Shown: positions 22,728 through 26,564, numbered from the stretch's first letter. The stretch is 64,000 nucleotides of DNA from Methanobrevibacter sp. (GCF_030539875.1 NZ_JAUNXI010000004.1:19575-83574); one strand, 5' to 3'. The notes: generated by a model from the sequence alone, not told the origin. A program made the numbers and translations.

Positions 22728-22784
22728 GCACTTTGGTTTCAGTTTTATGCATCTTGGATGTGCTGCCAATTAGCCATTTATATA
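22728..22784 (+). promoter_or_regulatory. LytTR-type direct repeat (9-12-9) upstream of a TATA box
   Basis: GCACTTTGG 22728-22736 and GCATCTTGG 22749-22757, 12 bp apart; TTTATATA at 22777-22784. Confidence 0.6.
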
Positions 22785-22815
22785 TGGTTTTACTAATCAT
22801 ATAATTGAAGGTGAT

Positions 22816-23070
22816 ATGATGGATTTAAGACAAAAGGCAGAAAAAAGAGTTGATAGAAAAATCAAATTCAAAGAAAATCTATATAAGTATTTGATGGTAA
22901 ATACAATAATAGCAATTATCTGTTTTCTAATCCTGCAAAGCTTTTGGTTATTGGCATTTGTAATGCTTTTCTGGGGAATTGAACTTGCAGATGATTATTT
23001 TAAAGCTTATCCTCTTAATGATTATCGGGAAAGAATGATTGATAGGGAACTTTCTAAAATGGGTGATTGA
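22816..23070 (+). CDS. 2TM domain protein
   Basis: RQKAEKRVDRKIKF...two TMs...FWGIEL...RMIDREL. Confidence 0.8.
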   Translation: MMDLRQKAEKRVDRKIKFKENLYKYLMVNTIIAIICFLILQSFWLLAFVMLFWGIELADDYFKAYPLNDYRERMIDRELSKMGD

Positions 23071-23346
23071 ATGGACGACAGTTTAAGGGTTACAGCAGAA
23101 AAAAGAGCCGATGCCAAAATCAAATTTTATAAGGATTTTATTATTTATATAATTGTCAACCTATTGTTGGCGGCTGTCAACTTCACTTTCACTCCTGAAT
23201 TCTGGTGGGTGTTATTTCCAGCATTTTTCTGGGGTATTGCAGTGTTTGATGGCTTTTTAAAAGCATTTGTATTTAGTGCTAAATTTGACACAGCAGAATA
23301 TAGGGAACAAAAGATTCAAGAAGAAATGGAAAAGTTAAGGAAATAA
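23071..23346 (+). CDS. 2TM domain protein
   Basis: AEKRADAKIKFY...YIIVN...WWVLFPAFFWGI...KIQEEMEK. Confidence 0.85.
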   Translation: MDDSLRVTAEKRADAKIKFYKDFIIYIIVNLLLAAVNFTFTPEFWWVLFPAFFWGIAVFDGFLKAFVFSAKFDTAEYREQKIQEEMEKLRK

Positions 23347-23349
23347 ATC

Positions 23350-23790
23350 ATGAAGGTAAATTTATTTGTTTCAAGAGATATTGAAGAGCCCCATGCAGAT
23401 ATTCACACCGATGAATTAACTGATAACATCACAAAGGCAATGTCAATTTTAGAAAGTGATGAATCAAGTGAAATGCTGGCGGTAAGAAAGGGTCTTGATA
23501 TTGCCCTTTTAGAGTTTAATGAAGTTTACATGCTTAAAGTTGAAAATAAACAGGTTAATGTCTATACTGAAAGTGGCGAATACTTTATTAAAAAACCATT
23601 ATATCAGGTTGAAGAGACACTAACGGGCGATTTTGTCCGCATATCTAAAACTACAATTATTAATTTAAAAAAGATAGGGAGAGTTGCTCCTTCACTTAAA
23701 GGAATGATGTTTATAGAACTTAAAAATGGCTTAAAGGATAATATCTCAAGAAAATACCTGCCCGGATTTAAACAGGCTTTAGATTTATAG
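23350..23790 (+). CDS. stand-alone LytTR DNA-binding protein
   Basis: FVRISKTTIINLKKI LytTR signature; no receiver domain. Confidence 0.92.
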   Translation: MKVNLFVSRDIEEPHADIHTDELTDNITKAMSILESDESSEMLAVRKGLDIALLEFNEVYMLKVENKQVNVYTESGEYFIKKPLYQVEETLTGDFVRISKTTIINLKKIGRVAPSLKGMMFIELKNGLKDNISRKYLPGFKQALDL

Positions 23791-23802
23791 GTGGTTTTTA
23801 TG

Positions 23803-24222
23803 AAAATAAAATTAATTGAAATGCTAACATTAGGTGCTTTTATAGGCTGTTTTATTGTAATGTGTGTCATGGTTATAATTTCTTTAACAAACGGACCTCA
23901 TAACATTCAATTCAGTGGTGTTGATATAATAAATTCGTTTCTTGGATCAATAGTTGCAGGTTGGGGATTTTCCTTAAGCGGGCTGATTTACCATAAAGAA
24001 GATTTGCCTTTTCCGCTTCAGGTTATTTTTCAAATGACAATCGGAATGACAGTATTGTTCCTGATTGCAATTTATCTTCATTGGATGCCTATCAACCTCG
24101 GAATCGGTCCGGTAATAACCTGGATTGCAATAGCCTGCATATCTGCAATTATTTTCTGGATGGGATTTTATATTTATTATTATCTGGTTGCACGTGATTT
24201 GAATAAAAAGTTAAATAGATAA
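23803..24222 (+). CDS. DUF3021-like membrane protein (LRS inhibitor type)
   Basis: 4 TM, IAIYLHWMP and YYYLVARDLNKKL C-terminus; directly after the LytTR gene. Confidence 0.82.
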   Translation, partial: KIKLIEMLTLGAFIGCFIVMCVMVIISLTNGPHNIQFSGVDIINSFLGSIVAGWGFSLSGLIYHKEDLPFPLQVIFQMTIGMTVLFLIAIYLHWMPINLGIGPVITWIAIACISAIIFWMGFYIYYYLVARDLNKKLNR

Positions 24223-24232
24223 TGTATGTTTT

Positions 24233-24634
24233 CTATCTGATGTCATATCCGCATTCACTGCACTTACAGGTTTGGAATTTTATGACTCCTCCGCATTTAG
24301 GACACAACCATTTTTCACGGTCTTGAATCATCATACGTCCAATTCCTGTGGTTTTAATTCTTTTTGCACTTTCAAGTGTGTTTAAATCATGTCTTTTAAT
24401 ATATTTTTTTGAATGTTTTTTCATTAAAGGACAGGGAAACTCACTGCATCGGGCGCAATAGCTGAAATTCTTAGAATCAAAGCATGTTTTAATTTTACAT
24501 TTTAAGCTGGCCTTGCTTTTGCCGGTACTGCCGATTAAACAGCCCGCACAGGGGCTTTGATATTTATCACAGCTAATGCAGTTGATTCCGCAAGGAGCTA
24601 ATAATTTTGAATTGAGTTCATCAGGCATTTTCAT
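24233..24634 (-). CDS. DUF3795-like Cys-rich protein
   Basis: APCGINC..C, CAGC, CKIKTC, CARCSEFPC plus terminal zinc ribbon. Confidence 0.8.
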   Translation of the reverse strand: MKMPDELNSKLLAPCGINCISCDKYQSPCAGCLIGSTGKSKASLKCKIKTCFDSKNFSYCARCSEFPCPLMKKHSKKYIKRHDLNTLESAKRIKTTGIGRMMIQDREKWLCPKCGGVIKFQTCKCSECGYDIR

Positions 24635-24712
24635 GGGAGCACCATTTAAGAAAGTTATATATTTAATTTAATGCTAAACTTATCTTATAGTTATCGTAAT
24701 GTTTGTGGTAAT

Positions 24713-25456
24713 GTGCCGATTATTATTCATCCTGAATTAAAAAAGTTAAAACATAAATTATCTGATTTGATACTGGAGCATCAGGAACTCGAATTCCAGA
24801 TTTGTCCATGTCTTGAAAGAGAATATATTTTCAGTTTTGGTTTTATTGAATATAATCTTTATGAGAAGGATGTAAGGTTATCTATACTTAAAAGAAAGCT
24901 TAGGCTGATTCAAATCCAAATAAACAACAATGAACCTATTGATATGGACTTGATTAATGAAATTTTAAAAGAAGAATGCTCACAATACCGCAGGAATATT
25001 AAACTGCAGATGGACGAATTGGAAAATGCAATGAAAGACAAATTAAAAAAGACTCTCTCAAAAGAGGACACAAAAAGGCTTAAATTAATCTATAAGCAAT
25101 GTGTTTTGAAACTGCACCCCGATTTGAACAAGAATTTGTCTGAGGGTGAAAAAAATTTATTTATACGGATTACGGAAGCATTTAAAAATGCCGATTTAAA
25201 AGCATTGGAATCGCTGTATTATCTGATTCCTCATGGTGAAGTGGAATCCATGTTGGAAATGGACAGGTTGCAGGAATTAATTGATTATAAGAAAAGAGAA
25301 ATAGCTGAAATCAAAAATGAATATCCTTATAATAAAAAAGAGCTTGTATGTGATGATGAGAAAAAACAAGCATACATAACCGAACTTAGAAATCTGATTA
25401 GTCAGTTTGACAGTGAAATTCAAAGGTATAATGAAAAAATTAATGATCTGATTTAA
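24713..25456 (+). CDS. coiled-coil protein with J-domain
   Basis: YKQCVLKLHPDLN (HPD motif) after a long coiled coil; probable GTG start 24713 (ORF open from 24671). Confidence 0.8.
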   Translation: MPIIIHPELKKLKHKLSDLILEHQELEFQICPCLEREYIFSFGFIEYNLYEKDVRLSILKRKLRLIQIQINNNEPIDMDLINEILKEECSQYRRNIKLQMDELENAMKDKLKKTLSKEDTKRLKLIYKQCVLKLHPDLNKNLSEGEKNLFIRITEAFKNADLKALESLYYLIPHGEVESMLEMDRLQELIDYKKREIAEIKNEYPYNKKELVCDDEKKQAYITELRNLISQFDSEIQRYNEKINDLI

Positions 25457-25858
25457 ATGGCCAATATTCAAAAGAGCAATTCTGAAGTTACCAAATTCAT
25501 TGAATTTTTGCATAAAAGCGAAATAGTCCCTTTTCTGGAAGATATTTACTTAATTACTGTTGATGTTGCCGGTTTGCATTATATTGAAAATATCGATGAG
25601 ATAATTCCTAAAATTAAGGAAAAATCAAATCTTGAACTGGTTCGCGAAAAAAATAATAAATTTGATGCAAATGCAATACTGGTTCTGTTTAACGGTGAAA
25701 AAATAGGATATGTTCCAAGAGAGCATAATCTCATTCTGGCTAATTTAATGGATGCAGGAAAAGAGATTTACGGTGTTGTAAAAACAGTATCTGCAGAATC
25801 GGTTTATGAAAATGATGACTCTAAAATAATCAGTTTTAAAATTTTTTTAAAAGAGTAA
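25457..25858 (+). CDS. HIRAN domain protein
   Basis: VAGLHY, LVREKNNKFDANAILV, KIGYVPR HIRAN pattern. Confidence 0.88.
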   Translation: MANIQKSNSEVTKFIEFLHKSEIVPFLEDIYLITVDVAGLHYIENIDEIIPKIKEKSNLELVREKNNKFDANAILVLFNGEKIGYVPREHNLILANLMDAGKEIYGVVKTVSAESVYENDDSKIISFKIFLKE

Positions 25859-25913: not shown

Positions 25914-26006
25914 TTACTGTTATTTTTAACAGTAAGTAATTTACTTTTTTTGGGATAATTTCCCATATGGATGTGGCCTTCGTGGCTGAACAAAAAGGTG
26001 TTATTA
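25914..26006 (+). promoter_or_regulatory. structured 5' leader of rpl15e (candidate eL15 r-leader)
   Basis: TTTATAAA box at 25886; hairpins TTACTGTTA/TAACAGTAA, TGGGA/TCCCA and GCC/GGC before the RBS. Confidence 0.5.
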
Positions 26007-26564
26007 ATGTATAAATATATTAGAGACGCATGGAAAAACCCAGATGAGTCTTACGTACGTGAACTCATGTGGCAAAGAGCTCCTAAATGGAGAAGAGAAA
26101 AAGCAGTTCAAAGAATTGAAAGACCAACCAGATTGGACAGAGCTAGAAGCTTAGGTTACAGAGCTAAAAAAGGTTTTGTTTTAGTAAGAACTAGAGTAAG
26201 ACGTGGTGGAAGAAGAAAATCCCGTCGTTTCAACGGCCGTAAACCTAAAAGAATGGGTGTAAACAAAATTACCCAAGCAAAATCTATTCAAAGAATTGCT
26301 GAAGAACGTGTAGCTAAAAAATACCCTAACTTAGAAGTATTAAACTCTTACTGGGTATGGGCTGACGGCAAATACAAATATTTCGAAGTCATTTTAGTTG
26401 ATCCACAAAGTCCTTCCATCGTTAACGATGAAAAAATCAACTGGATTTGTTCTAAAAAACACACTAACAGAGCTCTCAGAGGCTTAACTAGTGCAGGTAA
26501 TAAAGGACGTGGAATCAAATCCAAAGGAAAAGGCTCCGAACAAGCTAGAAGAAGAAAATTATAA
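26007..26564 (+). CDS. rpl15e: 50S ribosomal protein L15e
   Basis: [47 protein letters not shown]; start refined after AGGTG RBS. Confidence 0.97.

Follow-up and report, generated by a model that had tools for sequence, protein, structure and literature searches.

A probable DUF3021-type LytTR regulatory system behind a putative archaeal promoter in Methanobrevibacter

Introduction

LytTR regulatory systems (LRS) combine a LytTR regulator that has no receiver domain with a DUF3021 or DUF2154 membrane protein encoded downstream, and they operate without a kinase (PMC6193735). In LRS operons, direct repeats of ~9 bp, spaced 11-13 bp apart, lie about 10 bp 5' of the -35 hexamer (PMC6193735). The regulator is held in check by the membrane protein, whose loss leads to autoactivation through positive feedback (PMC6193735). 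That LRS occur in "some archaea", and that DUF3021 is an LRS membrane domain, was already stated by Zou et al. 2018 (PMC6193735). A LytTR and DUF3021 pair from Staphylococcus aureus, BrpR/BrpS, is under study (PMC13509338). Here we analyze four genes in a 64,000-nucleotide stretch of DNA from Methanobrevibacter sp. (GCF_030539875.1 NZ_JAUNXI010000004.1:19575-83574), hereafter the window, with positions counted from its first letter. The genes encode two small proteins with two transmembrane segments each (2TM), a LytTR protein, and a DUF3021 protein.

Taken as a whole, we consider it reasonably probable that the locus is an LRS of the DUF3021 type that was acquired once from Clostridia-like bacteria, that runs from an archaeal promoter, and in which the 2TM proteins are accessory, most likely as an output.

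Results

A predicted four-gene operon with a stand-alone LytTR regulator

The first-pass annotation of the window had described a block of two 2TM genes, a stand-alone LytTR gene, and a DUF3021-like gene at 22816-24222. The open reading frame (ORF) list and Pfam bear this out, and place the four genes in that order on the + strand (Table 1). All four Pfam matches far exceed the curated cut-offs (for PF13239, the gathering cut-off is 24.8 bits). The intergenic gaps are 0, 3, and 0 bp, and the last becomes 9 bp if DUF3021 begins at ATG 23800. This start is likely to be the correct one, rather than 23791, because a Shine-Dalgarno sequence (AGGTGG) precedes it and because it fits the relatives better. 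The placement of Shine-Dalgarno sequences, together with alignments to relatives, also makes ATG 22819 the more likely start of 2TMa. The host is archaeal: ribosomal protein L15e is encoded at 25971-26564, and the closest proteins are named Methanobrevibacter (84-88% identity for LytTR).

We observed that PF04397 is the sole domain of the LytTR protein, and that a receiver domain is absent (Pfam). In NCBIfam, the matches of the regulator are confined to the C-terminal portion of the LytR and BtsR models and fall far short of their cut-offs. Its gene is the single LytTR gene in the 1.82-Mb genome. Searches of Pfam, NCBIfam, PHROGs, and PADLOC revealed neither a kinase nor any other enzyme domain in the four proteins. 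With no receiver domain, and with no kinase gene in or adjoining the operon, the locus does not belong to the LytSR/AgrCA type of two-component system. The membrane protein expected of an LRS is encoded directly downstream of the regulator, at a distance of 0-9 bp.

The gene arrangement is not a chance one, because 26 of 30 related loci, from five genera, share the order 2TM-LytTR-DUF3021. Comparison to orthologues indicates purifying selection on each of the four genes. The dN/dS values, for which dS is near saturation, are 0.04-0.08 for LytTR, 0.15-0.22 for 2TMb and DUF3021, and 0.16-0.45 for 2TMa.

A conserved putative operator at a fixed distance from the TATA box

Upstream of the first gene, we found two direct repeats arranged as GCACTTTGG-12-GCATCTTGG, followed after 19 bp by TTTATATA. 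We compared the LytTR loci of 30 genomes of the family (Methanobacteriaceae), with the first spacer allowed to range over 10-13 bp and the second over 14-26 bp. In 26 of the 30 loci, these came out at exactly 12 and 19 bp, whereas the spacer sequences varied freely. The putative operator of the family reads GCAYYTYRG-12-GCATCTTGK, 19 bp 5' of the TATA box. This 19-bp distance was retained in all 26 operon loci, and seven sister genomes keep it at a further 8 sites, each the second or third in its genome.

We then searched 151 family genomes with a degenerate pattern of the whole architecture. The pattern matched 26 of 40 LytTR-positive genomes and 0 of 111 LytTR-negative genomes (Fisher p = 2e-19). 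As a control, the reversed pattern gave 0 matches in the 151 genomes. The pair at 22728-22757 has the direct-repeat form of LRS operators, with a TATA box 19 bp away replacing the -35 hexamer ~10 bp away.

Table 1 Positions of the operator, core promoter, and genes of the predicted LRS in the window
Feature	Position	Strand	Description
Distal 9-bp operator repeat	22728..22736	+	GCACTTTGG; consensus GCAT(T/C)T(C/T)(A/G)G in 26 related loci; invariant 12-bp spacer
Proximal 9-bp operator repeat	22749..22757	+	GCATCTTGG; consensus GCATCTTG(G/T); always ends 19 bp before TTTATA
Archaeal TATA box	22777..22784	+	TTTATATA; inferred promoter; transcription start site (TSS) expected near 22807
2TMa	22816..23070	+	84 aa; PF13239 E 2.7e-13, 50.2 bits; younger, faster-evolving copy
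2TMb	23071..23346	+	91 aa; PF13239 E 7.4e-20, 71.2 bits; conserved LRS-linked 2TM gene
LytTR regulator	23350..23790	+	146 aa; PF04397 E 5.6e-21, 75 bits, residues 51-144; stand-alone
DUF3021 membrane protein	23791..24222	+	143 aa; PF11457 E 7.2e-21, 75 bits; presumed regulator inhibitor

A stand-alone LytTR protein, an adjoining downstream DUF3021 gene, no kinase, and 9-12-9 repeats 5' of the operon promoter make it very probable that the system is an LRS of the DUF3021 type. The earlier reading of the locus as an archaeal LRS held up on all four of these features, which are the ones that can be judged from sequence. The comparison also supports the view that this LRS of bacterial type runs from an archaeal promoter. 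The first-pass annotation had it working with archaeal transcription machinery, and the 19-bp TATA distance, fixed across genera, gives that proposal comparative support.

That the distance is invariant at 19 bp speaks for a face-of-helix contact of LytTR with the basal factors. We infer that LytTR acts as an activator, since the putative operator overlaps neither the TATA box nor the TSS. It could instead be a repressor, or at least non-activating, with the TATA distance reflecting occlusion or DNA bending and not recruitment of TATA-binding protein (TBP) and transcription factor B (TFB). Most characterised archaeal regulators of bacterial type are indeed repressors. Yet the operator ends 19 bp 5' of the TATA box, clear of the B recognition element (BRE)/TATA and of the TSS, and the geometry is retained at exporter promoters (see below), which are sensible as inducible targets. 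In bacterial LRS, activation works from the same placement just 5' of the core promoter (PMC6193735). We consider a repressing or non-activating role very unlikely, and retain activation as the working reading.

We also considered a sigma-70 promoter (TTTATA-17-TATAAT) at this locus. This candidate was dropped, as the host is archaeal and matches were equally common in shuffled sequence. A search of Rfam returned sub-threshold noise only.

In other genera (L012-L022, L028, and L029), we observed a leader of ~100 nt with a conserved imperfect palindrome, AATGGAATTTCATT, ~45 nt 3' of the TATA box. The window lacks this palindrome, a possible second operator that can alternatively be read as a mini-ORF (MEFH-stop).

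Origin of the archaeal LytTR genes

The first-pass annotation had called for a phylogeny against Firmicutes. We searched 1.84 billion representative proteins for LytTR relatives, and recovered many full-length, stand-alone LytTR proteins of 140-150 aa. Those that are named are Clostridial. The LytTR protein of the window is 39-44% identical to Clostridial LRS regulators over its full length, and the DUF3021 protein is about 22-32% identical to its Clostridial counterparts.

In trees of ~146 columns, the 40 archaeal LytTRs form one clade (SH-aLRT 94) that lies beside or nested among Clostridial and other representatives. When set against 71 named Clostridial sequences, the archaeal split has a support of 96. 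The phylogeny thus places the archaeal proteins together, beside or within Clostridia. LytTR occurs in 10 of 30 genera of the sampled phylum, all of one family. Within the genus of the window, it is lacking in about 18 of 103 genomes, and the copy in G080 is a pseudogene. The LytTR domain is ubiquitous in bacteria. One archaeal clade, confined to one family, and a domain so widespread in bacteria point to a single, old transfer, probably from bacteria to archaea, with a Clostridia-like source as the likely donor.

We inspected four Clostridial loci gene by gene. Each is a two-gene LytTR-DUF3021 operon with DUF3021 immediately downstream, and the repeats read GCATCTTAC-12-ACCACTTGC or similar. 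A scan of species-representative genomes yielded 80 further loci, nearly all from Clostridia and many from rumen or gut metagenome-assembled genomes. DUF3021 was present in 75 of the 80 loci (within 5-kb flanks). The Clostridial operator consensus is GCATCTTAC-12-GCCACTTAC, followed after ~10 nt by a GACA -35 element and then TATAAT. The half-site GCATCTT is common to the archaeal and Clostridial operators. On this comparison, the half-site appears to have survived the transfer, and the core-promoter phasing alone appears to have changed.

The LytTR protein also has a full-length match (E 4e-28) to phrog_34833, a PHROG family of unknown function. Phage genomes therefore carry stand-alone LytTR proteins of this type as well.

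The 2TM genes are a lineage-specific addition

Of the two membrane proteins encoded before the regulator, 2TMb carries the conserved motif AE.R.D.KI.FY...Y..VN...WW....FWGIG...YRE.KI..EMEKL. Its AlphaFold2 model (pLDDT 74) is a helical hairpin with a charged C-terminal helix (helices at 2-39, 42-71, and 75-90), in which the N-terminal helix is long. Both a score above the gathering cut-off and the hairpin model place it in PF13239. In 2TMa, which shares 37% identity with 2TMb, the WW motif is missing and the C-terminal helix is incomplete.

The first-pass annotation had described the locus as an LRS expanded with two 2TM proteins. Both genes are real, but the pair is a recent tandem duplication, and the conserved state is one 2TM gene. 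The tandem pair is limited to five genomes (L002-L006), all from the genus of the window.

Loci that carry a 2TM gene form one subclade of the archaeal LytTR clade (support 95), which implies that 2TM was gained once, on one branch within Methanobacteriaceae, by insertion between promoter and regulator. LytTR-DUF3021 loci that have no 2TM gene occur in deeper archaeal lineages (G049; genera g2, g4, g6, g7, and g22; and G002 of g3). Most of these lineages retain the 9-12-9-19-TATA promoter. In the Clostridial set, we found a 2TM gene in 0 of 80 loci (5-kb flanks, using a hidden Markov model built from archaeal 2TM sequences). The absence of 2TM-LRS triads outside Methanobacteriaceae refers to these 80 closest Clostridial loci. 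Because 2TM is absent both from them and from the deeper archaeal LRS lineages, it appears to be an archaeal addition that is accessory and no part of the core signalling.

The 2TM family also has a life apart from LytTR. PF13239 is present in 96 of 151 Methanobacteriaceae genomes and in 24 of 27 genera (vs 40 of 151 genomes for LytTR), and stand-alone 2TM paralogues occur in LytTR-negative genomes too. In Bacteroidota, 2TM domains may also be fused to LytS-type kinases, a point that carries no weight in our argument.

These data bear on whether 2TM is a third subunit of the switch, such as an accessory sensor, a co-inhibitor, or an anti-inhibitor, which would act with DUF3021 in the membrane to tune the release of LytTR. 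Start and stop codons coupled at 0-3 bp would suit such a subunit, as would the retention of 2TM 5' of LytTR in 26 loci from five genera. A defective LRS also goes with a defective linked 2TM gene, in the form of a truncated copy in G080 and of an in-frame stop in G004. Both 2TM termini are predicted cytoplasmic helices, whose conserved charged motifs could touch a soluble partner. Against this, at least seven archaeal lineages and all 80 Clostridial loci have the core switch without 2TM, and the 2TM family is widespread in the absence of LytTR and is found in other operons. LytTR and DUF3021 do not change in length or domains where 2TM is present. A third subunit is a doubtful proposition on this evidence, and we favour a regulated output. 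We give an even chance to the 2TM proteins being an LRS-controlled output, that is, small hairpin membrane proteins whose synthesis comes first and keeps pace with the switch. Output is favoured because 2TM seems dispensable to the core switch, because the family works without LytTR, and because the 2TM genes lie next to the promoter and make up all the cargo that this genome still has.

A holin/antiholin pair was also considered for 2TMa and 2TMb. There was no PHROG or Pfam holin match and no lysis genes were found nearby; topology alone would be compatible.

We made two side observations on 2TM genes elsewhere. In four LytTR-negative congeners (L108-L110 and L112, from G066, G111, G147, and G103), a 97-aa 2TM paralogue lies 7-10 nt before a MatE efflux gene. 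The window's genome has a MatE orthologue (70% identity, C15:153591-154952) with no 2TM gene in front. 2TM-MatE and 2TM-LRS look mutually exclusive in this small sample. In other genera (L113-L115, from G005, G085, and G024), a stand-alone 2TM gene adjoins a winged helix-turn-helix + PhoU regulator and pstS-like genes. The neighbours there also include an uncharacterised membrane protein of ~205 aa (310 aa in one locus).

Efflux genes are candidate targets in sister species

We built a position weight matrix (PWM) from the 26 operator sites and used it to look for further targets. In the window's genome, the operon promoter is the only strong site (27.5 bits). The next site scores 17.2 bits and has no properly placed TATA box.

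Seven other genomes, six from the same genus and one from another, have a second site of identical geometry. The ATG of a MacB_PCD/FtsX permease gene lies 28-29 nt after this site; an ABC ATPase gene follows the permease gene, and a DUF3781 gene is divergent. At these ABC (ATP-binding cassette) exporter sites, the ATG is 28-29 nt past the start of the TATA box, which suggests that the exporter mRNA is leaderless. One species has a third 9-12-9-19-TATA site (L053, G140:C15:69331-69385), before genes for a class I S-adenosylmethionine methyltransferase and a major facilitator superfamily (MFS) transporter.

Close orthologues of the exporter are also present in LytTR-negative genomes (G004, G083, and G114) and in G080, where LytTR is a pseudogene. 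The proximal repeat at the exporter promoter is decayed in exactly those four genomes.

In the window's genome, the exporter itself is a decayed pseudogene on another contig, outside the window (C17:1-800). The remnants comprise DUF3781, the distal repeat, the frame-broken 5' end of the permease gene, and ~50 C-terminal residues of the ATPase. The intact four-gene operon thus appears to have no detectable target here except itself. On the output reading, 2TM would be the only output remaining in this genome, because the exporter target has decayed.

Such a genome might hold an orphan LRS that is heading for loss, regulates only itself, and has no physiological output. The decay of the MacB/FtsX exporter together with its operator, the lack of another strong site, and the frequent loss of LRS in the genus described above would fit an orphan. 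All four genes, the operator, and the TATA box are nevertheless intact. The dN/dS of each gene is also well below 1, though it is averaged over the whole divergence and not since the loss of the exporter. Furthermore, 18 of the 26 motif-positive genomes have the operon site only, so self-only wiring is common and not an oddity. An orphan on its way out is therefore improbable.

Two further loci touch on efflux. In genus g4 (L126, L123, and L127), LytTR is accompanied by a DUF3021 protein of ~229 aa, and L126 also has an ABC ATPase in cis. In G002 (L124), a MatE gene lies just upstream of LytTR-DUF3021. The g4 ATPase and the G002 MatE gene add to the LRS-efflux theme.

Structure and library searches

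The AlphaFold2 model of the DUF3021 protein is a confident bundle of four transmembrane helices (pLDDT 92). When it was compared to the PDB, fold matches were at chance level only (E >= 1, TM-score <= 0.42). No PDB entry matched LytTR by sequence at E <= 0.01. PHROGs and PADLOC returned nothing for the membrane proteins.

Outside the LRS, a convergent gene for a DUF3795 zinc-ribbon-like protein lies at 24233-24634. The region at 24671-25858 encodes a weak J-domain protein (DnaJ E 3.7e-4, under the cut-off) and, directly after it, a stand-alone HIRAN-domain protein.

Discussion

A model for the archaeal switch

In the mechanism that we propose, the DUF3021 protein would keep LytTR inactive at the membrane until a membrane or envelope signal frees it. 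The freed LytTR would then occupy both repeats as a tandem pair. These steps are modelled on HdrRM and BrsRM. From about -50 to -80, LytTR would aid the loading of TBP/TFB on the adjacent BRE/TATA, and thereby the assembly of the pre-initiation complex. Induction of its own operon would give positive feedback; in sister species the MacB/FtsX exporter would be induced too, and in one species the MFS pump.

Several points weigh against this reading. The strict operator pattern is unmatched in 14 of the 40 LytTR-positive genomes, some of which have ACC-type half-sites or other spacing. The LytTR trees are thin, and their rooting was taken from taxon distribution. Activation was chosen over repression from the operator position only, and the inhibitory role given to DUF3021 is borrowed from S. 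mutans, whose membrane proteins are not close homologues. The evidence for 2TM as an output is circumstantial: with other outputs present in sister species, the switch appears able to do without 2TM in this role. In addition, tight translational coupling to the regulator would also suit a subunit of a signalling complex.

A joint reading combines two of these ideas: LytTR would contact TBP/TFB directly from its rigid 19-bp position, and 2TM would be an archaeal-specific third subunit that serves as a receiver or anti-inhibitor. We regard this combination as unlikely. If true, the methanogen version would be a three-component, kinase-free sensory system without a bacterial counterpart.

To our knowledge, LRS are poorly understood kinase-free sensors, and their signals are unknown even in bacteria. 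The locus offers a comparative example of a bacterial activator module that apparently moved into an archaeon, with the DNA half-site kept and only the core-promoter phasing altered. With it, direct tests of TBP/TFB recruitment by bacterial-type activators need only one small protein and a 60-bp promoter. Methanobrevibacter of the rumen and gut are the main source of enteric methane. Because the linked targets are efflux pumps (MacB-type ABC and MFS), the switch may report on the way in which these methanogens sense and resist membrane-active inhibitors, bacteriocins, or feed additives. For the uncharacterised PF13239 family, the insertion and duplication of 2TM in particular lineages also amounts to a natural experiment on function.

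Comparison with known systems

Our literature search turned up no work that treats LytTR in Methanobrevibacter or considers 2TM alongside LytTR. The accessible part of the supplements of Zou et al. 2018 makes no mention of Methanobacteriaceae (PMC6193735). The Methanobacteriaceae clade, the TATA-phased operator, the exporter targets, and the insertion and duplication of 2TM were likewise not found in the searchable literature.

In Bacillus subtilis, the liaIH-liaGFSR locus has small membrane effector genes before the regulatory genes, a regulator-dependent promoter, and autoregulation by read-through. It differs from the Methanobrevibacter locus in being a two-component system with a kinase and in sharing no homology, and is a mere analogy for output genes that lie 5' of their regulator.

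The LRS of Thermoplasmatales archaeon BRNA1 (TALC_RS05580/05575) is also from a gut methanogenic archaeon (Zou et al. 2018, PMC6193735). It belongs to another archaeal order, however, and has a BrsM-like protein with very weak similarity and no 2TM genes. Its promoter was read by the authors as -35/-10 (PMC6193735), and its operator lacks comparative support.

LRS with a linked ABC transporter, of the types of Listeria lmo0984-0987 and S. mutans SMU_433/434 and SMU_1070c/1069c, are exporter-coupled, as the system appears to be in sister Methanobrevibacter species. Unlike in those systems, the exporter in Methanobrevibacter is a target in trans, elsewhere in the genome, and only a pseudogene of it is left in the window's genome.

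HdrRM and BrsRM of Streptococcus mutans share with the locus a receiver-less LytTR regulator, a small membrane protein encoded immediately downstream, and the lack of a kinase (PMC6193735). The present system differs from them in its archaeal host, in an operator phased to the TATA box (19 bp) and not to the -35 hexamer (about 10 bp), and in the one or two 2TM genes between promoter and regulator. The closest sequence relatives that we found are the LytTR-DUF3021 operons of gut and rumen Clostridia (Christensenellales, Lachnospiraceae, and Oscillospiraceae), which have the same gene order. These differ from the archaeal operon in having no 2TM gene, in their sigma-70-type promoters, and in a proximal half-site that reads GCCACTTAC and not GCATCTTGG.

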